A stretch of 64,000 nt of DNA from Candidatus Poribacteria bacterium. GTDB lineage: Bacteria; Poribacteria; WGA-4E; GCA-2687025. The stretch covers positions 576,001-640,000 of the forward strand of contig OY762492.1 in the NCBI GenBank assembly GCA_963665845.2. The letters are read 5' to 3'. The notes under the pieces are model-generated. The model was not told the DNA's origin. It searched no databases and saw nothing but the letters and a program-made list of their open reading frames with translations. Position 1 is the first letter of the stretch. Each line of letters begins with the position of its first letter. A program made the position numbers and the translations under genes. Of the stretch, positions 5,078 through 61,553 are shown piece by piece.

Positions 5078-5199
5078 CAACGCCTCCATCCTAACGCCCA
5101 TATCTTACCATGTTTTCAGCATGAACGTAACCAGACGGCAGTCTCTATAGGCGATGATGTACGAAAATCCTGTTTGAGTCGGGCTGCCTGTCATTCCGG

Positions 5200-5275
5200 G
5201 CGCGGCTAAAACCCCCTAGCCCCTTTCAAGGGGAATCGGACGCGCCGCGAATATCTCCGTATGGGCGTACTACCG
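5200..5275 (+). repeat. REP-like C/G-tract palindromic element (family B: AAACCCCCTAGCCCC(C)TTTCAAGGGG(G)AATC...GCGCCGCGAATAT)
   Basis: Similar copies at 47631-47703 and 61495-61553; inverted copies at 6553-6590, 27523-27563 and 27570-27612. Confidence 0.85.
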
Positions 5276-5368: not shown

Positions 5369-6307
5369 ATGAAACAACTGAACAGACGCGCATTCTGGCT
5401 CATACTTGCCGGCGTCGGCATGGCGGCGGTTGCCGTAGTCATGTTTTTGGCGGCGGAACGTCTTAAAAAAAGCGGCATGGACAAGAAACCGACGGGTACG
5501 CCTTCAACAGAAGTCGCGCAGATCCTCGCCCCTTTCCCCGCTCCTGTTGAGGCAAAGCCGATTGTTCAAGCGGCGCCCTCCACTCCTGAAAAGACGAAGC
5601 CCCCTGCGGTAAAACGCGCCGAGGAGCCTCCCGTTGAGCTGCAGACAGCGCCTTCCCCGCGGTATGTTTATGTGGAAAACTCTCTCGAAAAAGGGGCGCG
5701 GGACTACGACGCAAACGGACAGATCGGCGACCCGCCGGCGGGCTGGAAAGAGGATTACTCCCACTGGGATTCTGAAAACTGGGGCATGCCGCTTGAAAAG
5801 CTGGGAACGCTCTATCCAAACGGGAAGGTCGACTACAGCGTCCAGCCTTTCAAATTGAGCGCAGAAGGCAACAGATTATTGATGGAGGAGCTGGAATCGA
5901 TCCGTCAAGAAAAGGGGGAAGAAGCCGCCAAAGAGTTCATCTCCGACACCCCGAAAACAGGCCTCATTCGCCTTGGCGACGAGTATATTGACCGCGGATA
6001 CATGCGCGTTGAGGTAGAAAGCGGAAAAACGGTTTATGCGGCTTTGAGTCTGTTCGATGTTTACGGGTATCGAATCCTCGGCAACAGATTCCGCCAATTC
6101 AGCTCTCCCAACAACTTCTCCGTTGCGTATTACAGGCGGCACACTGACGGCGCGCTCATGCGCGATATTTACATGTCTGATAAAGGCGCTAAAGAGTTCA
6201 TCGCCGCGCCGCCTCCCGACATGTCCCAATATACAGACGCTCAAATCGAGGCGCTCAAACGCGCATGGCGGGGAAACTTAGAAGCGCTCAGCCCATGCTA
6301 TTTTTAA
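5369..6307 (+). CDS. Hypothetical membrane-anchored protein
   Basis: 312 aa; N-terminal TM helix and P/K-rich linker; no recognisable family. Confidence 0.7.
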   Translation: MKQLNRRAFWLILAGVGMAAVAVVMFLAAERLKKSGMDKKPTGTPSTEVAQILAPFPAPVEAKPIVQAAPSTPEKTKPPAVKRAEEPPVELQTAPSPRYVYVENSLEKGARDYDANGQIGDPPAGWKEDYSHWDSENWGMPLEKLGTLYPNGKVDYSVQPFKLSAEGNRLLMEELESIRQEKGEEAAKEFISDTPKTGLIRLGDEYIDRGYMRVEVESGKTVYAALSLFDVYGYRILGNRFRQFSSPNNFSVAYYRRHTDGALMRDIYMSDKGAKEFIAAPPPDMSQYTDAQIEALKRAWRGNLEALSPCYF

Positions 6308-6381
6308 AAAGCGTCCGCGGCGCTTATGATTCCGCCCGCCTGCGCAGGAAGGGCGAGTAGCCCGCGGGGTTTCTAAACTCC

Positions 6382-6549
6382 CTGACCTCATGCTAAAAGT
6401 TGGGACATTTGAACTGACGATCGCTCTATTCATGGGAAAAAGGCTTCGTCAACCAGACCGTCATTCCCGCGTAAGCGGGAATCTAGAGGCGCCGAAGAAG
6501 ACGTCCGCGTTCGCATGCCGACATGTCCCAACTTAAGACGTGAGGTCAG
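6382..6549. mobile_element. 168-bp MITE, copy 1
   Basis: Imperfect 27-bp TIRs (CTGACCTCATGCTAAAAGTTGGGACAT / ATGTCCCAACTTAAGACGTGAGGTCAG); 8-bp direct repeat TAAACTCC at 6374-6381 and 6550-6557; second full copy at 54702-54869. Confidence 0.9.
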
Positions 6550-6604
6550 TAAACTCCCCCTTGAAAAGGGCTGGGGGTTTTTAGCCGCGCGCTGATCACG
6601 CTTC

Positions 6605-6749
6605 GTTTTGAACTAGGATTTTCAGGATTTGAGATGCGGGCATGTCGTGGGCGGCGTGTCGATTTTCGGCAATTCTCCTGGCAATCTTTTCAATCATGCA
6701 AATCTTAGTTCAGAAAGCAGACAGTTTCGGGTACGCCTCTGGATTCCCG
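6605..6749 (+). repeat. ~145-bp dispersed intergenic repeat (family C) with an internal inverted repeat TGAACTAGGATTT...AAATCTTAGTTCA
   Basis: Highly similar copy at 27627-27779. Confidence 0.85.
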
Positions 6750-6843
6750 CTTGCGCGGGAATGACGACCTGGTTGATGACGCTTCTTTTCCATGAATAGA
6801 GCGGTCATTCGTTCAAATGTCTCTAACTTTCGGCGCGAGGTAT
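6739..6843 (-). repeat. Degenerate inverted left half of the 168-bp MITE, including a REP-like palindrome at 6742-6765
   Basis: Reverse complement aligns with 6382-6484 (ACCTC...AAAGTT.G.GACATTTGAAC...GCTCTATTCATGG...CAACCAG...GTCATTCCCGCG.AAGCGGGAATC). Confidence 0.75.
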
Positions 6844-6953
6844 TGTATCGACGGGCGGGGCGCGCTAAATTAATGGACGCCGCGCGCTCATCGATTCAAC
6901 CGAAAAGCCGCGCGCTCATTCAAAGACCGAAAAGAACCGAAAAGGACACGCAT

Positions 6954-9785: not shown

Positions 9786-10517
9786 ATGAGCGAATGGCTG
9801 CGAATTGCGCATCGGGGCGCGTCTGGGCATGCGCCTGAAAACACCCTTGCATCGTTTCAAAAGGCGCTGGAGATCGGCGTGGACGGCGTCGAAATGGACG
9901 CGCGAATGACGGCGGACGGGCATGCGGTCGTCGTCCATGACGCGACGCTGGACCGAACGACCGACATGACAGGGCGCGTCGACAAGTTGACGCTGTCCGA
10001 GATCAAACGCGCAAACGCGGGCGGCGGCGAACGCGTCCCGACGCTCAAGGAGGCGCTGTCGATACTGCCGAGCGGCGTTCTGGCGGTGGTGGAGATCAAG
10101 GCGGCGGAGGCGGCGGGTCCGTCGGCGCGCATACTGTCCGATTTAGGCAAAAGCGCCGAGGCGCTCGTCATCTCTTTTTTGCCGGACGCGCTCCCTCCCG
10201 TCCGCGCCGTCGATGCGGACATTCAGATAGGTTTGATTGTCGCGCAGCGGCTGGCTGAAGGCGAGGCGGAAAACGGCTTGGCGATGCTTGAAGCGGCGCG
10301 CGCCCTTGGAACCTCCGCTGTCAGCTGCCACTGGCAAACCGCAGCGCCTGAAACGGTCGAGGCGATTCATAAAGCGGGCGGAACCATCGGCGTCTGGACG
10401 CCGAACGAACCTGCCCATATCCGCCAAGCGATCCAATCGGGCGTGGACGCTGTCACCTCCGACTATCCCGACCGGTTGAACGACGCCCGCGCCGTCGATG
10501 AAGGGCAAGGAAAATGA
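9786..10517 (+). CDS. Glycerophosphodiester phosphodiesterase
   Basis: IAHRGASGHAPENTL, EMD, HDATLDRTT, WTPN and SDYPD motifs. Confidence 0.93.
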   Translation: MSEWLRIAHRGASGHAPENTLASFQKALEIGVDGVEMDARMTADGHAVVVHDATLDRTTDMTGRVDKLTLSEIKRANAGGGERVPTLKEALSILPSGVLAVVEIKAAEAAGPSARILSDLGKSAEALVISFLPDALPPVRAVDADIQIGLIVAQRLAEGEAENGLAMLEAARALGTSAVSCHWQTAAPETVEAIHKAGGTIGVWTPNEPAHIRQAIQSGVDAVTSDYPDRLNDARAVDEGQGK

Positions 10518-12562
10518 GACGGGGAATCGCTGCGGCGTTGATGGCTGTCCCGCTGCTTTTCTTTATCGGCTGCGACAATGGATTCAGGGGCAGTACCAAC
10601 TACGATAAAGGTCCGGCTTCCGTCGTCTATTCGCCGGACGGCAAAACGCTTGCCGCGGTGGGAAAATCGTTTGACGGCGACACGATCCTGCTCTTGGACG
10701 CCGAAACGGGAGATGTAAAGGCATCGCTGGAAGGACATGAAGGACATGGACGGCCTGTCCGTTCCGCGGCGTTCTCGCCGGACGGCAAAACGCTTGTCAG
10801 CGGCGGGGGATGGACAGACTACACGATTCGAGTATGGAATGTCGAAACAGGCGCGCCGATCAACACCCTAAACAATAGCAACGGCGGCTGTGTCGTAACC
10901 TTTTCGCCGGACAGCAAAACGCTCGTCATCGCCGATTCTATGGGCGAGATACAGTTCTGGGATGTCGAGACATGGACTCAAATTGCAAACCATTCGTTAA
11001 GAGGAGACGCGAACTGCTTGGCGTACTCGCCGGATGGAGAACGGCTTGCCGCCGGCGCAGCGTTAAGCCGGGATGTTCATATTTTTGACGGAAGAACCTT
11101 CGAACCTGTCCAAACTCTCCGCGGGCATCGGGATATGGTCACATCCGCCGCCTATTCGCCGGACGGGAAGATACTTGCTATCGGCGGAAACAAAGGGCAA
11201 CTAACGCTTTGGGACGCTTACACCGGCAAGCGGCTCAAAAAGTGGAACGGGCATGAAAGCGGCGTGTTGTCGCTCTCGTTTTCGCCTGACAGCAAAACGC
11301 TTGTGAGCGGCAGCGACGGCGACAGCGACAGCGGCGGCGACAAAACGATACGGCTTTGGGATGTCCAAACGCGCGAGCTGATCAAAACGATCCAGGACCC
11401 TGAAGGATCTAGATCGGTGGCGTATTCGCCGGACGGAACGACAATTGCCAGCGGCAGTTTAAACGCAGGCGTACGTTTATGGAGCGCCGAAACGGGCGAT
11501 CCGACGAAAACGCTGTACGACGATAGCTATGCTGTCCGCTTTCTGGCTTTTTCGCCTGACGGCGAGTCGGTCACTGTGGACGGCTCCGGCACAGATCCGG
11601 CGCTTCCGAATGTGATCACATTTATTCGCTTTTTAGACCCCAAAACGCTAAAAGAAACGTTCAGAATGACGGATAACACGGATTTGATCGGCGCCCGAGC
11701 TAGATCCCTCTCGGCTGCGTATTCGCCGGACGGCAGGACGCTTGCGGTCGGGGGCCGCATCGCTACGGCTCTTTGGCGGCCGGACGCGTACCACTGGGAC
11801 GCTGAAAAAAGAGAACAGGTCAAAAAAGAGTTTCTAGCGCTGGCAGAGCAGGCAAAGACAGACCCTCAAATACCCGACGAGTCTTCGAGGGAGTACATCA
11901 TCGGCGAGCTGCTAGGCTCTGTCCGCCGCAATCTGTATTATCAAGTTATGAGGCACGATTTCAGCCGCGCGCTGTGTATGGACTTTTCGCCCGACGGAAA
12001 AACGCTTGCCATCGGTCGCGGTTCTATTGGAAGTATCGGACTCATCCATGCGGATACTGGAACGGTGAAATGGAAAACGTCAGATCACGAAAAGAAAGTC
12101 CGATTTGTCGATTTTTCACCCGACGGAAAAACGCTCGTCAGCGGCAGCCTCGACCAAACAGTGCGCTTCTGGGACGCCGAAACGGGCGCCATAATACGCG
12201 ACTTAAAAGGGCATCAAGGCATGGCGTACGCCGGCGCCTACTCTCCCGATGGCAAGACGCTCGCCGTCGCCAGCTCCAAAACCTTAACCGTCTGGGACGC
12301 CGCGACCGACGCTCTGGTTCATACGCTAGAGGGACATGACGGCGCCGTATTCTGCCTCGCGTTCTCTCCAGACGGCGCCGAAATCGCCACGGGAGGGCGG
12401 GATAAGACCGTACGACGATGGAGCGCCAAGACTGGCGAACTGATCAAAACGATGGAGAAGCATGCGGCGCCCGTGACCGCGGTCGCCTATTCGCCGGACG
12501 GCGCTCATCTGTTGAGCGGCGACGCGGTAGGTAAAATATACCGATGGAGTTTGAACGAATAA
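10514..12562 (+). CDS. WD40 repeat lipoprotein (large paralogue 1)
   Basis: Lipobox LLFFIGC; many SPDG/WD repeats; central helical insert. Confidence 0.9.
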   Translation: MRRGIAAALMAVPLLFFIGCDNGFRGSTNYDKGPASVVYSPDGKTLAAVGKSFDGDTILLLDAETGDVKASLEGHEGHGRPVRSAAFSPDGKTLVSGGGWTDYTIRVWNVETGAPINTLNNSNGGCVVTFSPDSKTLVIADSMGEIQFWDVETWTQIANHSLRGDANCLAYSPDGERLAAGAALSRDVHIFDGRTFEPVQTLRGHRDMVTSAAYSPDGKILAIGGNKGQLTLWDAYTGKRLKKWNGHESGVLSLSFSPDSKTLVSGSDGDSDSGGDKTIRLWDVQTRELIKTIQDPEGSRSVAYSPDGTTIASGSLNAGVRLWSAETGDPTKTLYDDSYAVRFLAFSPDGESVTVDGSGTDPALPNVITFIRFLDPKTLKETFRMTDNTDLIGARARSLSAAYSPDGRTLAVGGRIATALWRPDAYHWDAEKREQVKKEFLALAEQAKTDPQIPDESSREYIIGELLGSVRRNLYYQVMRHDFSRALCMDFSPDGKTLAIGRGSIGSIGLIHADTGTVKWKTSDHEKKVRFVDFSPDGKTLVSGSLDQTVRFWDAETGAIIRDLKGHQGMAYAGAYSPDGKTLAVASSKTLTVWDAATDALVHTLEGHDGAVFCLAFSPDGAEIATGGRDKTVRRWSAKTGELIKTMEKHAAPVTAVAYSPDGAHLLSGDAVGKIYRWSLNE

Positions 12563-12590
12563 CTCGCATAAAGGTATCAAGAACAGAGGG

Positions 12591-13646
12591 ATGCGTATGA
12601 AGAGACGGCGTCTAGCCTCGTCTGCGCTAGCGATGGCAGCTGTGCTAGCGGCTGCTGCGTCATGCAATAAACGCAGCGAACATATTCCAGCGATCATGAA
12701 CATGCCGCAGCCGGGCAGAGCGGTTTGCATGGCGTTTTCGCCGGACGGTAGAACGCTCGCCAGCGGTGGAAACGAAGGAATCTGGATATGGGACGCCGAA
12801 ACAGGGGTGGAACTCAAAGCGCTGAAGGGGTACAACTGCAGTTCGCTTGCCTACTCGCCCGACAGCAGGACGCTTGCCGCTGTCGCAGGAACCGACGAGA
12901 ACAACCGAACGGTCATGCTGATCGATACGGCGACAGGCAAGGTCAAGCCGGTTGAAACAATCGATCCGCCCGTTCATCTTGTAGCGTATTCGCCGGACGG
13001 CAAGATGATCGCGAGCGACAGCGGAAAAAACGCGGGCGGTATGTTCACGATTCGGCTCTGGGACGCCGAAACAGGCGCTCCCCTGCGAGATATAGGAGAG
13101 ATCAATTCCATCGGCGAGAAACTGATCTTTTCGCCGGACAGCGAACGGCTCGTCAGCCTTCACCGCTTTCCAACTCCCGCGACAAACGAAACGACGGAAC
13201 GGGCGTACTATCTGATTACATGGGATGTCGAAACAGGCGGCAAGAGATTTGAGCCGCCCCCGTTTCGGTATATGGGGTGGTGGCGCGGCGACAGCGCCGT
13301 CTACTCGCCAAACGGACAGCGGTTGGCGCTCGCCGGCGGTTCCGAGATCGGTCTATTCGACGCCTATAATGCCGAACTGGTTCAAAAAATGCATCGGCAC
13401 GAATATCCCGCCGATGTGGTGACGATGGCGTATTCGCCCAACAACAGCTTCTTGGCAAGCGGGGATAACGACGGGAATATTCATCTTTGGGACGCGTACA
13501 CGGGCAAACATTTGAAAGAATTAAAGGCGTACAACGGGACGGTCAGCGAGATGGCGTTCTCGCCGGACGGGACGAAGCTTGGCTGCGTGAATCACTTCGG
13601 GCATGTCTGGGTGTGGGATTTGAAAACGATGGAGATGAAGCAGTAG
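12591..13646 (+). CDS. WD40 repeat lipoprotein (small, single propeller)
   Basis: Signal peptide ending AAASC; about 7 SPDG-type repeats; paralogous to 20980-22059. Confidence 0.88.
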   Translation: MRMKRRRLASSALAMAAVLAAAASCNKRSEHIPAIMNMPQPGRAVCMAFSPDGRTLASGGNEGIWIWDAETGVELKALKGYNCSSLAYSPDSRTLAAVAGTDENNRTVMLIDTATGKVKPVETIDPPVHLVAYSPDGKMIASDSGKNAGGMFTIRLWDAETGAPLRDIGEINSIGEKLIFSPDSERLVSLHRFPTPATNETTERAYYLITWDVETGGKRFEPPPFRYMGWWRGDSAVYSPNGQRLALAGGSEIGLFDAYNAELVQKMHRHEYPADVVTMAYSPNNSFLASGDNDGNIHLWDAYTGKHLKELKAYNGTVSEMAFSPDGTKLGCVNHFGHVWVWDLKTMEMKQ

Positions 13647-13693
13647 GGGTACATACAGGTTCATATGTGCCGGCAAAGCGAGGCGCGGATCTT

Positions 13694-13776
13694 ATGAAGA
13701 AACGGCGGATGACAGAGGCAGCGGCGGCGCGCTCCTCTGCGGTAGGCAAATATACCGATGGAGTTTGAACGAATGA
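13694..13776 (+). pseudogene. Chimeric remnant of deleted WD40 gene(s)
   Basis: The 5' part resembles the start of the 12591 gene (ATGAAGAAACGGCG); the 3' part matches the end of the 10514 gene (GCGGTAGG.AAATATACCGATGGAGTTTGAACGAAT) with a 1-nt deletion. Confidence 0.65.
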
Positions 13777-15767
13777 TACGGCGAACCGCTGCGGCGCTGA
13801 TGGCTGTCCCGCTGCTTTTCTGTATCGGCTGCGGCGACGATGAAGTCGTCTTCCACGGCAACGCTGCCATCGCCTATTCCCCGGACGGCAAAACGCTTGC
13901 GGCGGTTGCAACATATACCTCTTTTGAGGGCGACACCATCTTGCTTTTGGACGCCAAAACAGGAGATGTGAAAGCCGCGCTGGAAGGTCATGAGCCGGTC
14001 GCCCGTTCCGCGGCCTTCTCGCCGGACGGCAAAACGCTTGTCAGCGGAGGGGCGCATGGGGACGCCTCCATACGGGTATGGGACGTCGAAACAGGCGCGC
14101 CGCTCAAAACCTTGGACGCGAAACGCGGCGGGGGCGTCGGCGTTGTTGTAGCATACTCCCCCGACGGCAGAACGCTCGTCAGCGGCTCTGGGGGCGCCGT
14201 TATCTTATGGGACGCCGAGAACTGGACCGAAAGAGCGATCGTCCCAGCCTCCACGACGAACGCCTTGGCGTATTCGCCGGACGGACAGAGAATAGCCTAC
14301 AGCGCCGCTTTCAGCCAAGAAATATATCTTCTGGACGGCTTGACAGGCGAACCTGTCGGGTCTCTAAAAGGGCATCGTCAAAATGTCGCGACGGTCGCGT
14401 ATTCGCCGGACGGCAAGACGCTCGCCAGCGGCGGAGCGAAGGGGGAGCTGCTGCTTTGGGACTCCTACACCGGCAAGCGCATTAAAAAGTTAAAAAGAAG
14501 CGCCTTCGCGGTCAAATCGCTCGCCTTTTCGCCGGACAGCAAAACGCTCCTAAGCGGAGGCTACGGCGACGCCATGCGGCTGTGGGATGTCCAAACAGGC
14601 AAACTAATCAGGGAGATCCAAGACTCTGAAGGAGCATGGTCGGTCGTCTATTCGCCGGACGGAACAACGATTGCCAGCGGCAGTTTAAACGCAGGCGTAC
14701 GTTTATGGAATCCCGAAACAGGCGAGCAAGTGAACACGCTGTACAGCAATCAAAATGCAGTCCGTTTTCTGGCTTTTTCGCTGGACGGCGACATCATCGT
14801 CTACAGCGACCGACAGGGGAAGATCGAAATGCTAAACGCCAAAACATTAGCAAAAACAACGTCGCTGCAAGACCGCCCCTACGGTTCGACCGGTTCAGCG
14901 GCGCTGTCTCCAGACGGCAAGACGCTGGCCGCAGGCAGTTCCGGCATTTCCGATCTTCTGTTTTGGCCGATTGCCGCGCATCACTGGGACGATGACAAAA
15001 GAAGGGCGGGCAGAGAAGCCGCCAAAAAAGAGTTCCTGGAGCGGGCAAAAACGATTGAATTGAACGGCGGCGGATCGATGACATCGCGCATCGCCGTTTC
15101 CGACTTGGAAAACGCCGTTCAATCGAATCGATATGTTTATGGCTTTGACATCCATTTTATCGGAAATGTCAATTGCATTGCGTACTCCCCCGATGGAAAT
15201 ACGCTCGCCAGCGGCGGAGGCAGAACAGATCGCGGAACCCTCGTATTGAGCGGCGCTGAAACGCCGTCTATCAAGGCGATCATAAAAGGCCACAAGCGGG
15301 CTGTTCGATTCGTCGCCTTTTCCCCCGACGGAAAAACGCTCGCCAGCGGCGGTCTCGACCGCACCGCGCGTTTCTGGGACGCCGAAACAGGCGCCGCCAT
15401 ACGCGACTTAAAAGGGCATCAAGGCATGGCGTACGCCGGCGCTTATTCTCCAGACGGAAAGACGCTCGCTGTCGCCAGCTCCGAAACTTTAGCCGTCTGG
15501 GACGCCGCGACCGACGCCTTGATTCATACGCTGACAGGTCATGAAGGCCCCGCGTACTGCCTCGCGTTCTCTCCAGACGGCGCCGAAATCGCGACAGGCG
15601 GGCGGGATAAGACGGTGCGGCGATGGAGCGCCGAGACAGGCGAACTGATCAAAACGCTGGAGAAACATGCGGCGCCCGTAACCGCTGTCGCCTATTCGCC
15701 GGACGGCGCTTATCTGTTGAACGGCGGCGCAGACGGTAAAATACATAGATGGAGTTTGAACGAATGA
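13773..15767 (+). CDS. WD40 repeat lipoprotein (large paralogue 2)
   Basis: Lipobox LLFCIGC; WD repeats; HHWDDDKRR insert; ends WSLNE. Confidence 0.9.
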   Translation: MIRRTAAALMAVPLLFCIGCGDDEVVFHGNAAIAYSPDGKTLAAVATYTSFEGDTILLLDAKTGDVKAALEGHEPVARSAAFSPDGKTLVSGGAHGDASIRVWDVETGAPLKTLDAKRGGGVGVVVAYSPDGRTLVSGSGGAVILWDAENWTERAIVPASTTNALAYSPDGQRIAYSAAFSQEIYLLDGLTGEPVGSLKGHRQNVATVAYSPDGKTLASGGAKGELLLWDSYTGKRIKKLKRSAFAVKSLAFSPDSKTLLSGGYGDAMRLWDVQTGKLIREIQDSEGAWSVVYSPDGTTIASGSLNAGVRLWNPETGEQVNTLYSNQNAVRFLAFSLDGDIIVYSDRQGKIEMLNAKTLAKTTSLQDRPYGSTGSAALSPDGKTLAAGSSGISDLLFWPIAAHHWDDDKRRAGREAAKKEFLERAKTIELNGGGSMTSRIAVSDLENAVQSNRYVYGFDIHFIGNVNCIAYSPDGNTLASGGGRTDRGTLVLSGAETPSIKAIIKGHKRAVRFVAFSPDGKTLASGGLDRTARFWDAETGAAIRDLKGHQGMAYAGAYSPDGKTLAVASSETLAVWDAATDALIHTLTGHEGPAYCLAFSPDGAEIATGGRDKTVRRWSAETGELIKTLEKHAAPVTAVAYSPDGAYLLNGGADGKIHRWSLNE

Positions 15768-17749
15768 AACGGCGAACCTTTGCGGCGTTAATGGCTGTCC
15801 CGCTGCTTTTTTCTATCGGCTGCAGAGAGAGATCCACGGTCCGTGTCAAAGGCGACGTTTCGGTCGTCTATTCGCCGGACGGCAAAACGCTTGCGGCGGT
15901 GGGAGAATCTTTTCACGGCGACACGCTCCTGCTCCTGGAGGCCGAAACGGGAGATGTAAAAGCATCGCTGGAAGGACATGAACGGCCGATCCGTTCCGCG
16001 GCGTTCTCGCCGGACGGCAAAACGCTTGTCAGCGGCGGCGGATGGATGGACGACACGATTCGAGTATGGGATGTCGAAACAGGCGAGCCGCTCAAGATCC
16101 TGAACATTCGGATGAACAGCGACTATGCCGTTACCTTTTCGCCGGACGGCAAAACGCTTGTCAGCGGCGATCATAATGGCAAGATACGGTTCTGGGATGT
16201 CGAGACATGGTCTCAAATAGCAATCCAATCGTTAGGAAAAGACATTAGCAGCTTGGCGTATTCGCCGGACGGTGAAAGGCTTGCCGCCGGCGCAGATTTA
16301 AGCCGAGATGTTCATATTTTCGACGGAAAAACCTTCGAACCCGTCCAAACTCTCCGCGGGCATCGGGATATCATCTCATCCGCTGCCTATTCGCCGGACG
16401 GAAAGATTCTTGCCAGCGGCGGAAATGAGGGAGAGCTGCTGCTTTGGGACGCTTACACGGGCAAACGGCTCAAAAAGTTAGAACGGCATAAAAGCGCGGT
16501 GTTGTCGCTCTCGTTTTCTTCTGACAGCAATACGCTTCTAAGCCGAGACTACAGCAGCACAATGCGGCTGTGGGATGTCCAAACAGGCGAACTGATCAAA
16601 AGGATTCAAGACCCTGAAGGATCAAGATATGCCGCGTATTCGCCGGACGGAACGACGATTGCCGGCGGCAACTTAAACAAGGGAATAAGCCTGTGGGACG
16701 CCGAAACGGGCAAGCTGACGAAGACGCTGTACAGCGTTCGAGACGCCGTCCGTTTTCTGGCGTATTCGCCGGACGGCGGCATCGTCTTCGCCGGCAGCGC
16801 GCGGGGGTATGTCGGAATGTTGAACGGGAAAACATTGAAAACAGTCAAGCGGCTGCAAGACCGCCTCTATCGGTCGGCCGCCCCGGCGGCGCTGTCGCCT
16901 GACGGCAAGACGCTGGTCGCTACCGATTACGACGATCTGATATTTTGGCCGATTGCCGCGCATCACTGGGACGATGACAAAAGAAGAGCGGCTAGAAGAG
17001 CGATGAAACAAGAGTTGCTGGCGCGGGCGAAATCTATTGAATTGGACGGCGGCGGATCGTACATGTCGCGCATCGCCGCTGTCAATTTGGAGAACGCCGC
17101 ACGATCCAATCGATATGTCTACGGCTTCGACATCTATTTTCCCGGAGAGATCAATTGCATTGCGTACTCCCCCGACAGCAAAACGCTCGCTGTCGGCGGA
17201 AGCAGAACGCTCGTATTGAGCAGCGCTGAAACGCCGTCTACCAAAGCGGTCATAGAAGACCACAAGCGGGCTGTTCGATTCGTCGCCTTTTCACCCGACG
17301 GAAAAACGCTCGTCAGCGGCAGCCTAGACCGAACCGTGCGCTTCTGGGACGCCGAAACAGGCGCCGCGATACGCAACTTAAAAGGGCATACAGGCATGGC
17401 GTACGCCGGCGCTTATTCTCCAGACGGCAAAACGCTCGCCGTCGCCAGCTCCAAAACGCTCACGGTCTGGGACGCCGCGACCGACGCTCTGGTTCATACG
17501 CTAGAGGGACATGACGGCGCCGTGTTCTGCCTCGCGTTCTCTCCGGACGGCGCCGAAATCGCGACGGGCGGGCGGGACAAAACGGTACGGCGATGGAATG
17601 CCAAGACAGGCGAACAGATCAAAACGATGGAGAAGCATGCGGCGCCCGTAACCGCCGTCGCCTATTCGCCGGACGGCGCCCATTTGTTGAGCGGCGGCGT
17701 GGACGGTAAAATACGCCGATGGAGTTTGAATGAAGGAGGAAGTAAATGA
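15764..17749 (+). CDS. WD40 repeat lipoprotein (large paralogue 3)
   Basis: Lipobox LLFSIGC; ATGA overlap with the previous gene; HHWDDDKRR insert. Confidence 0.9.
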   Translation: MKRRTFAALMAVPLLFSIGCRERSTVRVKGDVSVVYSPDGKTLAAVGESFHGDTLLLLEAETGDVKASLEGHERPIRSAAFSPDGKTLVSGGGWMDDTIRVWDVETGEPLKILNIRMNSDYAVTFSPDGKTLVSGDHNGKIRFWDVETWSQIAIQSLGKDISSLAYSPDGERLAAGADLSRDVHIFDGKTFEPVQTLRGHRDIISSAAYSPDGKILASGGNEGELLLWDAYTGKRLKKLERHKSAVLSLSFSSDSNTLLSRDYSSTMRLWDVQTGELIKRIQDPEGSRYAAYSPDGTTIAGGNLNKGISLWDAETGKLTKTLYSVRDAVRFLAYSPDGGIVFAGSARGYVGMLNGKTLKTVKRLQDRLYRSAAPAALSPDGKTLVATDYDDLIFWPIAAHHWDDDKRRAARRAMKQELLARAKSIELDGGGSYMSRIAAVNLENAARSNRYVYGFDIYFPGEINCIAYSPDSKTLAVGGSRTLVLSSAETPSTKAVIEDHKRAVRFVAFSPDGKTLVSGSLDRTVRFWDAETGAAIRNLKGHTGMAYAGAYSPDGKTLAVASSKTLTVWDAATDALVHTLEGHDGAVFCLAFSPDGAEIATGGRDKTVRRWNAKTGEQIKTMEKHAAPVTAVAYSPDGAHLLSGGVDGKIRRWSLNEGGSK

Positions 17750-19818
17750 GACAGGGAATCGCTGCGGCGTTGGCGGCTGCCGCGCTGCTTTTCAGTATCG
17801 GCTGCGGCGATAGACCCGCCGACAGCCGCAGCGGCGTTTTCACCTCTCGCGGCAACCCCTTTGTCGCCTATTCGCCGGACGGCAAAACGCTTGCCGCTGT
17901 CGGATGGGACGACTACGGCAACGAGGTCTTGCTCTTCGATGCTGAAACAGGCGATGTCAAAAAAGCGCTGGAAGGGGATAACCAAGGCGTCCGTTCCGCG
18001 GCGTTCTCTCCCGACGGCAAGACGCTTGTCAGCGGCGGATGGGACAACTCCATACGGGTTTGGGATGTCCAAACAGGCGAGCTTCTGAAAACGCTGACCG
18101 CTTTAGGCGAAGACGTTGCAGTCGTCTACTCTCCCGACGGCAAGACGCTTGTCAGCGGCAGTAAGTACGGCAGAATCCAATTCTGGGACGCCGAAACATG
18201 GACGCTCATAGCAAGCGACCGTTACAACGGGACTATTGCCAGCTTGGCGTACTCGCCGAACGGGCAGCGGCTGGCTGTCGGTCTCGCCCAATCCTCCGAG
18301 GTCCATTTGAGGGACGGCTTCACATATGAGCGCGTTGAATCTCTCCGCGGGCATCGGGACAATGTCGTTTCCGTTGCCTATTCGCCGGACGGAAAGCTTC
18401 TTGCCAGCGGAGGATCCGAGGGCGAGATACTGCTTTGGGACGCCAACACCGGCAAACGCCTCAAAATATTAACAAAAGCCGAGGGATCGCCGGTGTCGGT
18501 TGTCTTTTCGCCGGACAGCAAAACGCTCCTTGGCGAAAACGAGCGTTACATGGCAAGACAGACAACAACCTCGGGATCGCGGGTGTCCGTTTCCTATTAT
18601 TCACATGACGGTAAAACCCGCCTTGGCGAAAACGAGCGCAACAATATACGGCTCTGGGATGTCCAAACAGGCGAACTGATCAAGACGATCCAAAACCCCG
18701 ACGCGAGTCGATCGGTCGTTTATTCGCCGGACGGAACGACGATTGCCAGCGGCAACTTAGCAGGCGTACATTTATGGAGCGCCGAAACGGGCGAGCGGAT
18801 AAAGACGCTGGGAGACTATAGCCATGCGGTCCGCTTTCTGGCGTATTCGCCGGACGGCGGCATCGTCTTCGCCAGCAACGCGAAGGGGCGTATCGGAATG
18901 TTAGACGCCAAACCATTAAAAATAAGAAAGCCGCTGCATCCCCTCTTCACCTGGAGCCTGAAAGGTTCGGCGGCGCTGTCTCCAGACGGCGAGACGCTGG
19001 TCGCAGGCACAATGAGTTCCGACCTTGTGTTTTGGCATGTTGCGGCGCACCACTGGGACGATGACAAAAGAAGGGCTGGCAAAGAAGCTGCTCAAAAAGA
19101 GCTTCTGGCGCGGGCGAAACATCTTGCATTGAACGCCAAATCGGACATATCGCGCCGCTTCGCTGTTACCTTGGAGGATGCCGCGAATCGATCTGTTTAC
19201 AATTTTCCCCTCGACAGAACTTTCGGGAGCGTCCATTGCATTGCGTACTCCCCCGATGGAAAAACGATTGCTGCCGGCGGAAGCAGAACGCTCGTATTGA
19301 GCGAATCTGAAACAGCGCATGTCAAAGCGATCATAAAAGGCCACAAGGGGCGGGTCCGCTTCGCCGCCTTCTCGCCCGACGGCAAAACGCTCGTCAGCGG
19401 CAGCCTCGACCAAACCGTGCGCTTCTGGGACGCCGAAACGGGCGCCGCCATACGCGACTTAAAAGGTCATGAAGGCATGGCGTACGCCGGCGCCTATTCT
19501 CCAGACGGAAAGACGCTCGCGGTCGCCAGCTCCGAAACCTTAGCCGTATGGGACGCCGCGACCGACGCCCTGCTTCATATGCTGGAGGGTCATAACGGCC
19601 CCGCATACTGCCTAGCGTTCTCTCCAGACGGCGCTGAAATCGCAACAGGCGGGCGGGATAGAACGGTGCGGCGATGGAGCGCCGAGACAGGCGAACTGAT
19701 CAAAACGATGGAGAAGCATGCGGCGCCCGTGACCGCCGTCGTCTATTCGCCGGACGGCGCTCATCTGTTGAGCGGCGGCGCGGACGGTAAAATACACCGA
19801 TGGAGTTTGAACGATTAA
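17746..19818 (+). CDS. WD40 repeat lipoprotein (large paralogue 4)
   Basis: Lipobox LLFSIGC; HHWDDDKRR insert; internal duplication (LGENER twice). Confidence 0.9.
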   Translation: MRQGIAAALAAAALLFSIGCGDRPADSRSGVFTSRGNPFVAYSPDGKTLAAVGWDDYGNEVLLFDAETGDVKKALEGDNQGVRSAAFSPDGKTLVSGGWDNSIRVWDVQTGELLKTLTALGEDVAVVYSPDGKTLVSGSKYGRIQFWDAETWTLIASDRYNGTIASLAYSPNGQRLAVGLAQSSEVHLRDGFTYERVESLRGHRDNVVSVAYSPDGKLLASGGSEGEILLWDANTGKRLKILTKAEGSPVSVVFSPDSKTLLGENERYMARQTTTSGSRVSVSYYSHDGKTRLGENERNNIRLWDVQTGELIKTIQNPDASRSVVYSPDGTTIASGNLAGVHLWSAETGERIKTLGDYSHAVRFLAYSPDGGIVFASNAKGRIGMLDAKPLKIRKPLHPLFTWSLKGSAALSPDGETLVAGTMSSDLVFWHVAAHHWDDDKRRAGKEAAQKELLARAKHLALNAKSDISRRFAVTLEDAANRSVYNFPLDRTFGSVHCIAYSPDGKTIAAGGSRTLVLSESETAHVKAIIKGHKGRVRFAAFSPDGKTLVSGSLDQTVRFWDAETGAAIRDLKGHEGMAYAGAYSPDGKTLAVASSETLAVWDAATDALLHMLEGHNGPAYCLAFSPDGAEIATGGRDRTVRRWSAETGELIKTMEKHAAPVTAVVYSPDGAHLLSGGADGKIHRWSLND

Positions 19819-19840
19819 GCGAAAGCGGAGGAGTACGCGG

Positions 19841-20983
19841 ATGAGTAAACAAACCGCCTTATGGACATGCATCGTCCCGCTCTTGATCTTGACAGGCTGC
19901 GGCGACAACGCGCGCAAAGACGCCTACTACCCTTTAATTGACGCCGACGCTGTCCTTGCCCTCGCATTCTCTCCGGACGGAAAAACGCTCGCCAGCGGAC
20001 ACGGCAGTTCATCCAACGCTCCGGCAAAAATACGGTTGTGGGACGTGAAAACGGGAGAAAAGAAAACGACTCTGGAGGGGCATCGCGGTAAAATCGGAAC
20101 GCTGACATTCTCTCCTGACGGAAAGACGCTCGCCAGCGGCGCCTCGGACAAAACGGCGCGGCTATGGAACGTCGAAACGGGCGAACCAATCCAAACCTTT
20201 ACCACAACGACGACAATGAACGGGCTTCCGGGCGGGCGTCCAGCATGGCGCATCGAGTCGGTCGCGTTCGCCGACGGCGGAAAAAACCTGACAACCATTG
20301 ACCACTTCGGAGGCGTCGTTGTTTGGAACCCCGACACGGGCGCTCCAGCGCGAACTCCGATACAGATGTCGAGGAGGCAGCTTCCCGATTTTATCGCCGC
20401 AGCCTTTTCGCCCAACGGACAACTGATTGCTGTCAACGAAGCGATGGGGAAAGTTCTCCTCATGGACGCGGTTACAGGCGAACAGCTCCGCGTCATGAGG
20501 GGCCATTCGCATCTCATTCATGCGCTCGCCTTTTCGCCCGACAGCTCAACGCTCGCCAGCGGCAGTTTTGACTGGTCGATACTGCTTTGGAACCCTTACA
20601 AAGGCAAGAGGCTCAAACGGCTCGAAGGGCATGAAAGCAGAGTGTTGTGCTTGGCGTTTTCGCCGGACGGAAAAACGCTCGCCAGCGGCAGCATTTCTCC
20701 GCGAAAAGACACGTTGGACTGGTTCAAAGAGCAGGGGAAGATGATGGAATATATGGAGCGTAAACGCCGAGACGATTTAAGCGAGGAGATGCTGCGCGAG
20801 GAGACGCTGCGCCTATGGGATGTTGAAACAGGCGCCCATCTGAAATCGCTGGACGGACATAAAATGGCGGTCTGGTCGGTCGCATTCTCTCCCGACGGAA
20901 AGACGCTCGCCAGCGGCGGGGAGGATCGAACCGTTCGGATATGGGATGTGAAAACGAGCGAACTGGTCAAGACGCTCAAATGA
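19841..20983 (+). CDS. WD40 repeat lipoprotein
   Basis: Lipobox LILTGC; about 7 WD repeats with a charged helical loop insert. Confidence 0.88.
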   Translation: MSKQTALWTCIVPLLILTGCGDNARKDAYYPLIDADAVLALAFSPDGKTLASGHGSSSNAPAKIRLWDVKTGEKKTTLEGHRGKIGTLTFSPDGKTLASGASDKTARLWNVETGEPIQTFTTTTTMNGLPGGRPAWRIESVAFADGGKNLTTIDHFGGVVVWNPDTGAPARTPIQMSRRQLPDFIAAAFSPNGQLIAVNEAMGKVLLMDAVTGEQLRVMRGHSHLIHALAFSPDSSTLASGSFDWSILLWNPYKGKRLKRLEGHESRVLCLAFSPDGKTLASGSISPRKDTLDWFKEQGKMMEYMERKRRDDLSEEMLREETLRLWDVETGAHLKSLDGHKMAVWSVAFSPDGKTLASGGEDRTVRIWDVKTSELVKTLK

Positions 20984-22059
20984 AGCAGAACAATGCGCGA
21001 AATGAAAACGCCATGATCAAACGGCGGCTGGCGGCTCTCGCGTTGATCGTTATCGTCGTTCTGGCGGCTGCGTCGCTTTTGAGGAGGTCTCGACCGAAAC
21101 TGGAAGCGGTCCGCGTCCCATTATCGGGCAGCGGCAGTAAAACGATAGCGGTCGCATTCTCCCCGGACAGCAAGACGCTTGCCGGCGGCGGAGAAGAAGG
21201 CGTCATGTTCTGGGACGCCGAAACGGGCGGCTTGCTCAAAACGCTGGAGGGGTTTAACTGCAGTTCGCTTGCGTATTCGCCGGACGGAAAAACGCTCGCC
21301 GCGGCAGCCGGCGCCAACAGGGACGAACGCGCGCTGATTCTGATCGATGTTCAAACGGACGCGGTGAAAACGTTGGAAAAGCTGGACGATACGGTTTTAA
21401 CCGCCGCCTACTCACCGAACGGAAAAACGGTCGCGAGCGTCGGCAAAAATCTAACGACCAAAAAACACACGATACGAATATGGGACGCCAAAACAGGCGA
21501 TCCTCTCCACGCGCTGCCGGCATTCGACTCAGATAAGACAACCTTGACCTATACCCCTGACGGAGAGACGCTGATCAGTTTCTATTGCGCTCCAAAGATT
21601 CCTACGGTTAGGAGCCGCGAGTACAAGCTTGCATTCTGGGATGTGGACGGGGGCTACAAAAGAATTGAGCCGCCTGCGTTCCAATATAGAGGGTCTAGGT
21701 ATGACAAAGCCGCGGCGTATTCCCCGAACGGTCAACGGATGGCGGTTGCCGCCGGGAGCTTTGTACTGCTTTTCGACGCCTATACGGCGGAGTTTGTCCA
21801 ATCGCTGGAGCATTGCGAATGGGGTCCCTCTGTTTCTAGTCTGGCGTATTCGCCCGACAGCAAACTTTTGGCGAGCGGGGGCGACGCTGAAACGGACATC
21901 AATCTATGGAACGCCTACACAGGCGAGCATTTGAAAGGGCTGAGCGTTTACCACACGTCTATCTGGGATTTGACCTTCTCGCCGGACGGAACGAAGCTCG
22001 CCTGCATCGGCTTTCTCGGCTGGACGGGAATGTGGAAAATCGACCCTGTCAACCCATGA
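20980..22059 (+). CDS. Membrane-anchored WD40 repeat protein
   Basis: N-terminal TM (LAALALIVIVVLAAASLL) without a lipobox Cys; paralogue of 12591-13646; alternative start at 21013. Confidence 0.85.
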   Translation: MKQNNARNENAMIKRRLAALALIVIVVLAAASLLRRSRPKLEAVRVPLSGSGSKTIAVAFSPDSKTLAGGGEEGVMFWDAETGGLLKTLEGFNCSSLAYSPDGKTLAAAAGANRDERALILIDVQTDAVKTLEKLDDTVLTAAYSPNGKTVASVGKNLTTKKHTIRIWDAKTGDPLHALPAFDSDKTTLTYTPDGETLISFYCAPKIPTVRSREYKLAFWDVDGGYKRIEPPAFQYRGSRYDKAAAYSPNGQRMAVAAGSFVLLFDAYTAEFVQSLEHCEWGPSVSSLAYSPDSKLLASGGDAETDINLWNAYTGEHLKGLSVYHTSIWDLTFSPDGTKLACIGFLGWTGMWKIDPVNP

Positions 22060-22090: not shown

Positions 22091-22297
22091 CCGCGCCCGT
22101 TCATATCGTCATTCCCGCTCCTCTTCCCGTCATTCCCGCGCAAGCGGGAATCTTAAGGCATTGCAGCCGCCGCGCCCGTTCATATCGTCATTCCCGCTCC
22201 TCTTCCCGTCATTCCCGCGTAAGCGGGAATCTAGAGGCGCCTCAGAAGACGTCCGTGTTCGCATGCCGACATGTCCCAACTTAAGACGTGAGGTCAG
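22091..22297 (+). repeat. Two tandem REP-containing units (79-bp period) joined to the right half of the 168-bp MITE
   Basis: Units start at 22091 and 22170; palindromes GTCATTCCCGCG(C/T)AAGCGGGAATC at 22129-22152 and 22208-22231; the MITE right TIR ends at 22297. Confidence 0.85.
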
Positions 22298-27522: not shown

Positions 27523-27779
27523 TTCCCCTTGAAAAGGGGGTTAGGAGGGTTTCGGCGCGGCGCTGGTCGTTCCCCCTTGAAAAGGGGGGCTAGGAGGGTT
27601 TCGGCGCGGCGCGCGGTTGCGCTTGGTTTTGAACTAGGATTTTCAGGATTTATAGGATTTTGAGATGCGGCATGCCGCGGGCGGCGTGTCGGTTTTCGGC
27701 AATTCTCTTGGCAATCTTTTCAATCATGCAAATCTTAGTTCAGACAGCAGACGGTTTCGGGTTCGCCTCTGGATTCCCG
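27523..27779. repeat. Composite intergenic repeat: two tandem family-B palindromes plus a family-C element
   Basis: TTCCCC(C)TTGAAAAGGGGG..TAGGAGGGTTTCGGCGCGGCGC twice (27523, 27570); 27627-27779 is similar to 6605-6749. Confidence 0.85.
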
Positions 27780-30299: not shown

Positions 30300-30300
30300 A

Positions 30301-32109: not shown

Positions 32110-32119
32110 ACAAGAAGGG

Positions 32120-33925: not shown

Positions 33926-33935
33926 ACAAGAAAGG

Positions 33936-35741: not shown

Positions 35742-35760
35742 ACAAGAAGGGGCGAAGCGC

Positions 35761-37560: not shown

Positions 37561-37575
37561 ATTGAAGGGCGGCGT

Positions 37576-47575: not shown

Positions 47576-47703
47576 GTCATTCCCGCGTAAGCGGGAATCT
47601 TAAGGCATCGCAGCCGCCGCGCCCGTCCTTTAAACCCCCCTAGCCCCCCTTTCAAGGGGGGAATCCAGAGGCGCCGCGAATATTCCCCTATGAGCGTACT
47701 GCC
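47576..47703 (+). repeat. Composite REP module (family A palindrome plus family B element)
   Basis: GTCATTCCCGCGTAAGCGGGAATC at 47576-47599, then CCCCCCTAGCCCCCCTTTCAAGGGGGGAATC. Confidence 0.85.
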
Positions 47704-53471: not shown

Positions 53472-54701
53472 ATGGAGTTCATGCATACGACACTGGACAA
53501 CGGCCTCGTCGTCATCGGCGAACGGAACGAAGCGGCGCAATCGATGGCGTGCGGCTATTTCGTCAAGACAGGCTCGCGCGACGAAACGCCCGAAGTGAGC
53601 GGCGTCAGCCACTTTCTTGAACATATGATGTTCAAAGGCGGCGACCGCCGCTCCGCGGACGACATCAACCGCGAATTTGACGAACTCGGCGCGCAGTACA
53701 ACGCCTTCACCTCGTTTGAAAACACGGTCTATTTTGGACGGGTTCTGTCGGAATACCAGCCCCGCCTCATCGACCTGTTGACCGACATGATGCGCCCCGC
53801 CCTTCGAGACGACGATTTTGACATGGAAAAGAAGGTGATCTTGGAGGAGATCGCCATGTACAAGGACAACCCTGCGGCGGTTCTTTACTACATGGCGCGG
53901 GAAATCTTTGCGAACGGCCACCCGTCCGGCAACAGCATTCTCGGCACCACCGAGTCGATTGCCGCCCTGGAACGGGATCAGATGATGACCTATTTTGAGC
54001 GGCGGTATTCGCCGGGGAATCTCATCGCCGCGTTGACCGGCGCGTTTGACTGGGACGCCGCCGTTCGTCAGATTGAAGAGTCGACGCGCGACTGGATCCC
54101 GTTCGATGTCGGGCGGGAGGCGCCGGACCTGAATCACGCCGTCAAGACGCAGGTTGTGAAAAACGATCAGTTCACGCAACAGCATCTGATCTGGTTCTGG
54201 CCTGGTTTGAGCCTTCAGGATGAACGGCGGCGCGCTGCGGGCGTGTTGACGGCCGCTCTAGGGTCCAGCGTCGGTTCGCGGCTTTACTGGGGTTTAGTCG
54301 ATCCTGGCATCGCCCATTCAGCGAGCTTGTCCCTCTCTGCAGAGGATCGGTTCGGCGTCTACCTCGCATCCGCCTCATGCGATCCAAGCCGCGCGGGCGA
54401 GGTTGTGCAGAAGGTTCAGGAGATTCTGCGGGAAGCGACTCAGGACGGCGTTTCCGTTGAAGAGATCGAGCGCGCCAAACAAAAAATCGCTTCGGGAATG
54501 GTGTTGGGTTGGGAAACGCCGATGGGCAGGCTCGTGCCGGTCGGCATGGATTGGGCGTACCGCGGCGAATATATCGACGCGGACGAAGCGGTGAACAGAG
54601 TCCTGTCCGTAACAAAAGAGGATGTGGACGCGCTGCTGGCGGACGATCCGTTTGCGAATGGAACGCTGGTCGCTCTCGGTCCGCTGGAGACGCTGGATTG
54701 A
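53472..54701 (+). CDS. M16B zinc peptidase, catalytic subunit (copy 2, tandem paralogue)
   Basis: [13 protein letters not shown]; N-terminal half nearly identical to copy 1. Confidence 0.93.
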   Translation: MEFMHTTLDNGLVVIGERNEAAQSMACGYFVKTGSRDETPEVSGVSHFLEHMMFKGGDRRSADDINREFDELGAQYNAFTSFENTVYFGRVLSEYQPRLIDLLTDMMRPALRDDDFDMEKKVILEEIAMYKDNPAAVLYYMAREIFANGHPSGNSILGTTESIAALERDQMMTYFERRYSPGNLIAALTGAFDWDAAVRQIEESTRDWIPFDVGREAPDLNHAVKTQVVKNDQFTQQHLIWFWPGLSLQDERRRAAGVLTAALGSSVGSRLYWGLVDPGIAHSASLSLSAEDRFGVYLASASCDPSRAGEVVQKVQEILREATQDGVSVEEIERAKQKIASGMVLGWETPMGRLVPVGMDWAYRGEYIDADEAVNRVLSVTKEDVDALLADDPFANGTLVALGPLETLD

Positions 54702-54869
54702 CTGACCTCATGCTGAAAGTTGGGACAGCTGAACGACCAAAGTCTTTATTCATGGGAAAGAGGCGTCGCCAACCAGGTCGTACTCCCGCGTAAGCGGGAA
54801 TCCAGAGGCGCCGCAGACGACATCTGCGTTCGCCCGCCGGCATGTCCCAACTTAAGACGTAAAGGTCAG
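54702..54869. mobile_element. 168-bp MITE, copy 2
   Basis: TIRs CTGACCTCATGCTGAAAGTTGGGACA / TGTCCCAACTTAAGACGTAAAGGTCAG; 8-bp direct repeat TGGATTGA at 54694-54701 and 54870-54877. Confidence 0.9.
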
Positions 54870-54907
54870 TGGATTGAAAGGGGCATGAAAACGAAAGAGA
54901 CGCTTGC

Positions 54908-56500: not shown

Positions 56501-56598
56501 AACACGAAAAAGAGGTTTACGTTTACGCCGAAACGGACCATTACGTAAGCGAAGGTTGGACGATTTTCAGTCAGGTTCAAACAGAAAGGCAACGCACA

Positions 56599-57669: not shown

Positions 57670-57707
57670 GATGACACGCATCAACACGCATCAAAGGAGA
57701 AAACGCA

Positions 57708-57962
57708 ATGGAGTTCATGCATACGAAACTGGACAACGGCCTCGTCATCGTCGGTGAACGGAACGAGGCGGCGCAATCGATGGCGTGCGGCTATTTCGTC
57801 AAGACAGGCTCGCGCGACGAAACGCCCGAAGTGAGCGGCGTCAGCCATTTTCTTGAACATATGATGTTCAAAGGCAGCGACCGCCGCTCCGCGGACGACA
57901 TCAAACGCAACCTTGACGAACTCGGCGCGCAGTACAACGCCTTCACGTCGTTTGAAACCTAA
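57708..57962 (+). pseudogene. Truncated third copy of the M16 catalytic subunit (first 84 aa)
   Basis: Near-identical to 53472-53722, including the upstream ACGCATCAAAGGAGAAAACGC; stops after NAFTSFET. Confidence 0.88.
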
Positions 57963-61436: not shown

Positions 61437-61450
61437 ACGACAACCAGTTC

Positions 61451-61553
61451 GTCATTCCCGCGTAAGCGGGAATCCAGAGGCGCCGCCCGCCCTTTAAAAC
61501 CCCCCTAGCCCCCTTTTCAAGGGGGGAATCGGACAGCGCCGCGAATATCCCCC
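61451..61553 (+). repeat. Composite REP module (family A plus family B)
   Basis: GTCATTCCCGCGTAAGCGGGAATC at 61451-61474; CCCCCTAGCCCCCTTTTCAAGGGGGGAATCGGAC follows. Confidence 0.85.

Follow-up and report, generated by a model that had tools for sequence, protein, structure and literature searches.

Base-precise insertion upstream of promoters has been described for elements of the Mutator superfamily (IS256-like). According to Guerillot et al. 2014 (PMC3942029), TnGBS/ISLre2 elements (p-MULT 3) and the ISKra4 group (p-MULT 4) insert at housekeeping promoters, 15–17 bases upstream of the -35 box, mostly in an oriented manner (the ISKra4 group also in both orientations), and contact with RNA polymerase is put forward as a proposal. 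That study cites as an analogy the targeting of yeast Ty3 by TFIIIB (PDB ID: 7q5b), in which a eukaryotic retrotransposon integrase acts at Pol III genes.

The IS4 family, divided into subgroups by De Palmenaer, Siguier and Mahillon 2008 (PMC2266710), is described in the main text of that paper as having the triad spacing D(60-110)D(100-150)E and target duplications of about one helical turn (7–13 bp), with an IS10 subgroup of 1,200–1,350 bp and a 9-bp duplication; the word 'promoter' is absent from that main text. The parts of PMC9208149 and bioRxiv 10.1101/2025.07.22.666184 considered here concern only the general proximity of insertion sequences (IS) to genes. A search for promoter-registered IS4-like insertion found no report in the literature covered, in which subscription journals are thinly represented, and within that literature base-precise promoter targeting is in print only for Mutator-like transposases. 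IS1548, of the ISAs1 family, is said to lie in proximity to promoters.

Here, we analyzed a 64,000-nt stretch of DNA (the window, G000:C1:576001-640000) from a genome of 3.98 Mb in three contigs (G000), in which an earlier note had recognized a 168-bp miniature element (MITE). The MITE is ordinary in build, and its family shows base-precise promoter targeting by an IS4-like, Tn5-fold clade. The MITE and its partner IS work like the p-MULT 3 and ISKra4 elements, in that their distance to the -35 box downstream is fixed, but are not members of these groups: the transposase belongs to the IS4-like type and has a Tn5 fold, the element end lies 8–12 bases before the -35 box, insertion is unoriented, and the duplication varies in length around a fixed proximal cut.

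Copies of the MITE in the window and in the genome

The features of the window are collected in Table 1. Both 168-bp copies were found where the earlier note had placed them, each with its own exact 8-bp duplication, TAAACTCC for copy 1 and TGGATTGA for copy 2, and the two partial copies it listed are also real, the inverted one extending further than had been described. Of the imperfect terminal inverted repeats (TIRs) of about 27 bp that it reported, those of copy 1 are identical to each other at 22/27 positions and to those of the autonomous IS described below at 27/27 (right) and 25/27 (left). In copy 2, the sequence of the right TIR is CTGACCTTT rather than CTGACCTCA. Copies 1 and 2 share 84.7% identity across 170 aligned columns.

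Table 1. Coordinates of MITE-related features in the window
Feature	Position	Strand	Remark
Full MITE copy 1, 168 bp	6382..6549	+	TIRs about 6382-6408 / 6523-6549
Left target duplication of copy 1, TAAACTCC	6374..6381	+	Exact
Right target duplication of copy 1, TAAACTCC	6550..6557	+	Exact
-35-like TTGAAA beside copy 1, starting 4 bases past the duplication (family register)	6561..6566	+	Read from sequence
NTS/dRS3 hairpin within MITE copy 1	6459..6486	+	Departs from the published NTS pattern (28 nt) at one position; folds as a hairpin
Full MITE copy 2, 168 bp	54702..54869	+	Directly 3' of the M16 peptidase gene stop
Left target duplication of copy 2, TGGATTGA	54694..54701	+	Exact; contains the M16 peptidase stop codon
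Right target duplication of copy 2, TGGATTGA	54870..54877	+	Exact
Decayed inverted partial MITE, left part	6713..6843	-	Aligned 6734-6841, query 4-110, 82%; reaches about 6713
Predicted promoter TTGTAT-N17-TAAATT of Gfo/Idh/MocA oxidoreductase gene	6843..6871	+	Read from sequence; conserved in G001; adjoins eroded MITE end
Partial MITE, right part, right TIR intact	22206..22297	+	Query 77-168, 96.7%
MITE-interior fragment with NTS hairpin, without TIR	61438..61485	+	

Genome-wide, we found 470 TIR-like 26-mers (≤6 mismatches) as against none in the shuffled contig C1, which excludes a chance origin of the TIRs. BLAST defined 130 full-length copies, in classes of 168 bp and about 190 bp, the longer class carrying a 22-bp additional hairpin; two copies (C1:1160317 and C2:10980) share flanks, are probably the same site counted twice, and were kept in the count. 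Exact duplications flank 56/130 copies (5 bp, n = 3; 6 bp, n = 26; 7 bp, n = 19; 8 bp, n = 6; 9 bp, n = 2), where shuffled flanks gave 0.45 on average and never more than 4; a further 22/130 have a duplication with one mismatch and 52/130 have none. The 8-bp length that the earlier note took as characteristic of the family is therefore found at only 6/56 exact duplications, within a range of 5–9 bp and a mode of 6–7. Pairwise identity among copies averages 82–86%, yet several copies at separate sites are only 0–4 bases apart, so that the spread of the MITE has been both old and recent.

We searched 40 relatives and detected the MITE in a genome of the same genus (G001); a genome of the same family (G003) matched in the hairpin only, no MITE end being found with this query, and the other 38 gave no match. 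The comparison with G001 covers 1.2 of its about 3.6 Mb, and of the 130 copies 18 mapped there with both flanks syntenic, 37 with one flank and 12 to different tiles, with 63 unmapped. Clean empty sites carrying a single target copy, as the earlier note had proposed looking for, correspond to C1:402658, 1814196 and 3817660, and several others are near-clean. At the two window copies the orthologous G001 regions are altered by larger changes and gave no informative orthologue, and no empty joint for copy 1 was readable in the sequencing-run contigs, in which the joints, among the rows listed, were mostly repeats. The element is short, TIR-bounded, transposase-free and multicopy, with duplications, empty sites and a same-ended autonomous partner, and the view of the earlier note that it forms a transposed family is borne out: it is a non-autonomous MITE that arose by transposition.

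Rearrangement by recombination between copies, considered as the cause of the lost duplications, was not supported, with two reciprocal flank matches among the 52 copies where about 0.8 were expected. Synteny breaks were not in excess at MITE sites of G001 (11/25 mappable sites, 4 unmappable) when compared with MITE-free promoter controls (13/33, 21 unmappable). Duplications may have gone missing through adjacent deletion, decay or stacking, and in short-read MAGs through collapsed assembly too.

Position of insertions relative to predicted promoters

The main feature of the family, which the earlier note missed, is a fixed register upstream of -35 boxes. We retained 403 of the 470 ends (≤5 mismatches, intact terminus) and read outward from each. 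TTG peaks at positions 10–11 with a spread over 9–13, a range in which it occurs at 178/403 ends (termed anchored) and at 8% of random intergenic positions. The peak shifts one-for-one with duplication length, and when counted from the duplication edge TTG starts at +4 on 38 sides, belonging to 37/56 exact-duplication copies, with two at most for each of the remaining offsets between 1 and 8, and a single-offset intergenic background of 1.8%; the remaining 19/56 copies, including copy 2 of the window, lack TTG at +4. Aligned anchored ends (n = 178) give the logo TTGACA-N17-TAtaaT. A TAnnnT at a spacer of 16–18 follows at 103/163 non-repeat anchored ends, 90 of them at exactly 17, as compared with intergenic backgrounds of 7.1% for TTG, 10.2% for TTG[AC], 22% for TTGAC and 33% for TTGACA. 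The adjacent gene is co-directional in 142/162 cases, at a median distance of 83 bp (by our own crude gene finder). TTG and -10 occur together at 0.44% of random intergenic positions, and an end is present at 110/894 (about 12%) of promoter-like intergenic sites. The promoters in question, of the housekeeping type, are predicted from sigma-70 motifs.

The register is one-sided. Both sides were anchored in only 1/51 copies, which rules out a symmetric CAA...TTG target, and insertion shows no preferred orientation (among 78 copies, the anchored side is the left in 23, the right in 26, both in 1 and neither in 28), so either end of the element can face the promoter. The promoter-proximal cut is fixed and the distal cut floats, giving the duplications of 5–9 bp.

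The same pattern is present in G001, where 21/30 copies have a duplication, with TTG at +4 on 18 sides and a -10 at +27 on 13. All three clean empty alleles in G001 already hold the -35 box, and therefore the MITE does not create it. One promoter has been hit at the same base in both genomes, by a 189-bp copy in G000 and by a reverse-oriented 167-bp copy in G001. There are, in addition, nine end-to-end junctions with ends 6–8 bp apart; in three, the copy nearer the promoter has a duplication identical to the spacer, and a fourth has a 9-bp duplication overlapping the older end, as expected for re-insertion at one promoter.

Both window copies are atypical examples of this register. The TTGAAA beside copy 1 sits in a C/G hairpin repeat with TAnnnT absent at the -10 distance, and copy 2 is an exception on both sides, with neither TTG at +4 nor an in-register -10. 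The inverted partial copy has an eroded end in the window, and at the orthologous G001 site this end is intact, 10 bp before the same promoter.

Could the register have arisen by selection only, with random insertion and survival of those copies that lay, harmlessly or usefully, upstream of promoters? Coding sequence flanks both sides of only 1/129 MITE copies on C1 (again by the crude gene finder), so that purifying selection has been, or may have been, at work. However, such selection leaves the single-base register unexplained, with 38 sides at +4 and at most two at each neighboring offset, and likewise in G001 and among distant homologues; near-identical young copies include anchored ones, and a distant IS4-like element, described below, is without register. 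We consider this account very improbable and regard targeting at the moment of insertion, whether by polymerase or by read-out of DNA, as highly probable.

Under direct read-out, the transposase would itself recognize a word resembling TTGAC at 3 bp from one of the cuts, much as target arms are read by other IS, with AT-rich, meltable or supercoiled DNA helping. Promoters would then be hit as bearers of this word, and the transposase would not touch the polymerase. By analogy with Tn5, the -35 box would fall inside a plausible transposase footprint. There are 15/178 anchored ends, copy 1 included, at a TTGAAA in the hairpin repeat, at which no -10 is present; this repeat supplies 614/9333 intergenic TTG[AC] sites, about the same share, and so a -35-like word alone can serve as target. 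Strong conservation of target arms is described for some IS4-subgroup elements in the main text of PMC2266710, and ends without TTG in the homologous IS set have no -10 peak (1 against 2.6 expected, 89 ends among the matches listed). Against this reading, the -10, 27 bp from the cut, is found at 63% of anchored ends and at 10% of intergenic TTG[AC], mostly at the 17-bp spacing. The -10 is also in register at MITE ends that lack TTG, in G000 (28 against 4.2 expected, 225 ends) and in G001 (5 against 0.4, 30 ends), where the -35 hexamers are degenerate, though still TTGACA-like, and the one-sided anchoring is unlike that of a symmetric dimer reading DNA. Read-out of DNA alone is the main rival explanation, to which we give rather limited credence.

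The partner insertion sequence and its relatives

Pairing of TIRs identified a single-copy IS of 1,267 bp at G000:C1:561322-562588, ending 13.4 kb before the window, which supplies the transposase gene bounded by MITE-like ends that the earlier note had suggested seeking. Its left 26 bp match the MITE consensus at 26/26 positions and its right 26 bp at 24/26. That note had seen no transposase in the window and had been unable to assign the TIR to a known IS family; the window indeed lacks one, but the matching transposase does exist elsewhere in the genome, and the TIRs are now recognized as the ends of an IS4-like, Tn5-fold element. Only at the right end does similarity between IS and MITE extend further, to about 37 bp, and therefore the interior of the MITE did not arise by simple deletion from this IS copy. 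The IS itself has no target duplication.

The ORF of the partner IS matches Pfam DDE_Tnp_1 and does not match the Mutator family. The nearest NCBIfam models are those of IS4 (best NF033591, 77.7 bits, below the cut-off of 152), and all 50 aligned homologues match NF033591 at E ≤ 0.001. The catalytic and motif residues are D87, D168 and Y260-R263-E267-K274; within the Y(2)R(3)E(6)K motif, Y260, R263 and K274 are conserved in 50/50 homologues and E267 in 44, with D in 5. There are 80 residues between D87 and D168, inside D(60-110)D, and 98 between D168 and E267, just short of 100-150. The predicted model of the transposase has a pLDDT of 84 and a Foldseek E of 7e-12 to Tn5, which was also the best structural match (VIA Z score of 19.9, rmsd of 4.2, 304 aligned; ISCth4 Z score of 8.0) at 16–17% sequence identity. 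A sequence search of solved structures with the transposase gave no match, as did a single-protein transposase query against a collection of genome contigs, and tblastn against plasmids returned only a partial unannotated Rhodothermus match (43%) and an 'IS4 family transposase' at 26%.

The element therefore resembles IS4/IS10 and Tn5/IS50 in its CT ends, size (1,160–1,349 bp for homologues among the matches listed), DDE triad, Y(2)R(3)E(6)K motif and Tn5 fold, and differs from the IS4 NCBIfam models in its score below cut-off. Since duplications are 5–9 bp with a mode of 6–7 in the MITE and the homologous IS, as against 9 bp in IS10, we describe the partner as 'IS4-like' and do not file it in the IS10 subgroup. 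We infer that a transposase of this clade mobilized the MITE.

The G000 transposase copy is likely inactive, given a frame change at an A run of lysine codons near the C-terminus and a stop within the conserved terminal frame. Frame change and stop are both present in contigs of sequencing runs X1, from which G000 may derive, and X2, and variant contigs of runs X4 and X5 have other A-run lengths and no stop, so less damaged alleles probably exist in related populations. With this query, the transposase search of G001 gave a decayed fragment only, and a mobilizing copy was not seen there. Many homologues are single ORFs of 365–386 aa and others shift frame like the G000 copy. Locus L110, in a cultured strain of Thermanaerothrix solaris, is an example of an intact homologue. 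A frame change at the same A run, before the conserved C-terminal segment, occurs in homologues P0001-P0008, P0012, P0016 and P0031 (L001 around 1168), and the length of the run differs between sequencing-run contigs; the run could possibly serve as a programmed frameshift or as slippage control of the full-length transposase.

At E ≤ 1e-20 the transposase has 175 homologues. Using the alignment of 50 homologues as query, we obtained at least 80 genome and at least 80 metagenome loci, from which 28 below 38% identity were dropped; the 132 retained among the matches listed gave 197 distinct ends, 105 of them anchored. Among these matches a -10 follows 75/105 anchored ends, as against 71/2165 flanking control TTGs. 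Complete elements among the matches listed number 79 (median 1,256 bp), of which 22 have exact 5–9-bp duplications and 57 have none, and TTG stands at +4 in 20/22 of the former. Register-bearing homologues come mostly from Chloroflexota genomes and from metagenome contigs. In a midpoint-rooted tree, from which rows below 280 aa were left out, 30 family genome rows (26 Chloroflexota, one each of Bipolaricaulota, Nitrospirota and Actinomycetota, and G000) are split from five distant IS4-like rows at 100/100, and 27/30 family rows have at least one anchored end. Within the phylum sample, a transposase match (E ≤ 1e-40) was found in 3/151 genomes, of which the two besides G000 carry broken copies.

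As a negative control we examined a distant CT-ended IS4-like element of 1,340 bp from genome G025, in which an in-register TTG occurs at 1/38 ends; 19/20 regions were resolved, with 9-bp duplications in 12 (L258-L277). The control lacks the register, which makes the register specific to the clade. Several of the 19 resolved G025 copies sit within one C/G-rich hairpin repeat.

A proposed role for promoter-bound RNA polymerase

We think it probable that the MITE and the Tn5-fold IS are placed via promoter-bound RNA polymerase, with the near edge of the duplication 3 bp upstream of the predicted -35 box. The fixed proximal and floating distal cut, the one-sidedness and the dependence on a -10 lying 27 bp from the cut argue for an asymmetric anchor on the promoter side. 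The transposase would be held by the sigma-70 holoenzyme as a landmark, which may be sigma region 4, the alpha-CTD or DNA bent by the holoenzyme, rather than naked DNA. Cut-and-paste chemistry would proceed as in Tn5, with the proximal cut set by the landmark while the distal cut drifts. The site could offer a safe harbor, in which genes and core promoters stay intact and upstream sequence is displaced. Such placement would resemble that of Ty3, likewise position-specific upstream of promoters and set by the transcription machinery, but would involve a bacterial transposase, where Ty3 relies on the integrase of a eukaryotic retrotransposon and acts at genes of Pol III. We identified no tethering domain in the partner transposase, and a predicted complex of its residues 1-322 with sigma-70 region 4 (G000 RpoD 470-561; score 0.01, mark 0.32) is evidence neither for nor against contact.

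A broader proposal, for which we see an even chance, is that compact transposases of Tn5 fold, forming one clade that spans several phyla, dock on the sigma-70 holoenzyme, one subunit cutting 3 bp upstream of the -35 box and the cut of its partner floating. This would be a polymerase-tethered system of an origin independent of the Mutator-like one and a bacterial counterpart of Ty3–TFIIIB; the MITE would be a natural promoter marker, having rewritten the upstream (UP-element or activator) region of about 12% of promoter-like sites.

This analysis contributes the variable duplication around a fixed edge, the empty alleles, the repeated hits at one base and the negative control. That one edge of the duplication stays fixed while its length varies is a direct clue, read from the genome, to anchoring on the promoter side. 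With a second clade, Tn5-fold and with a single small transposase, the question of polymerase contact can be tested on the transposase whose structure has been studied best. Conceivable uses of such an element are the one-step mapping of active promoters and the delivery of cargo to sites at which genes are spared. For the host lineage, placement of this kind explains how hundreds of repeats accumulated without breakage of genes, and upstream regulatory sites are predicted to have been displaced at many promoters.

The internal hairpin and neighboring sequences

The palindrome that the earlier note saw inside the MITE is present, and it corresponds to the 28-nt NTS/dRS3 hairpins described together with the SsnA GIY-YIG nuclease in the main text of Chenal et al. 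2025 (PMC11893778), where the word 'MITE' is absent. Here, the hairpin lies inside a TIR-bounded MITE, unlike in that system. We counted 855 NTS hairpins in the genome, of which 122 belong to full MITEs, 133 are close to a TIR and 600 lie elsewhere; since these 600 lie away from any TIR, and since the hairpin is present in G003 with no MITE end found, it is a pre-existing repeat. The MITE carries this repeat and helps to spread it, accounting for about 30% of its copies, so the suggestion that the element may be a vehicle for a REP is supported only in part. Folded as RNA, the whole MITE forms a long stem (z -5.9), which its TIRs yield by construction.

Another account would make the element a REP/NTS-derived mosaic spread by an Ssn nuclease or by recombination, with incidental TIRs. 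The hairpin within the MITE and its abundance in the genome fit such an origin, and a 102-aa ORF of the GIY-YIG type (PF01541, Ssn-like; L278:273-578 = G000:C1:2298872-2299177) lies between inverted NTS hairpins at C1:2298772-2299245, a likeness to the NTS/SsnA system. However, the duplications adjoin the TIRs and not the hairpin, the TIRs match an IS with a DDE transposase, the whole element is absent from empty sites, and hairpin-free autonomous relatives share the register, and we regard this origin as exceedingly improbable.

An IS110-family element (NF033542, over cut-off) lies at G000:C1:3073473-3075010 (L002) and at nine further sites, for example C1:3504016, 527535, 534425 and 469929. 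The set comprises nine full or diverged copies and one partial copy, and 10/10 occupy the same position of the NTS hairpin, several inside MITEs, from which we think it likely to be a bridge-RNA element that targets this hairpin. Targeting of dRS3 of a similar kind occurs in Neisseria. A fragment of an IS1595-family transposase (L002:85-534) lies beside an IS110-interrupted MITE.

A second intergenic repeat, made of C/G hairpins around TTGAAAA, is found in the window at 5195-5233, 6557-6595, 27525-27616, 47617-47663 and 61497-61524, and at about 600 intergenic sites genome-wide, often in mosaics with NTS hairpins. Immediately after copy 2 lies a gene for a fused N6/N4 DNA methyltransferase–HNH nuclease (54908-56500), and the block 54698-57949 is absent from the orthologous G001 site. 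A 312-aa ORF without a Pfam match (5369-6307) is represented at this place in G001 by two tandem paralogues; a MITE right end lies 12 bp before the TTGACA promoter of its G001 counterpart, with none in G000. WD40 beta-propeller genes in long tandem arrays with a repeat spacing of 126 bp occupy 10514-21000, 28485-39369 and also 61613-63136 of the window.
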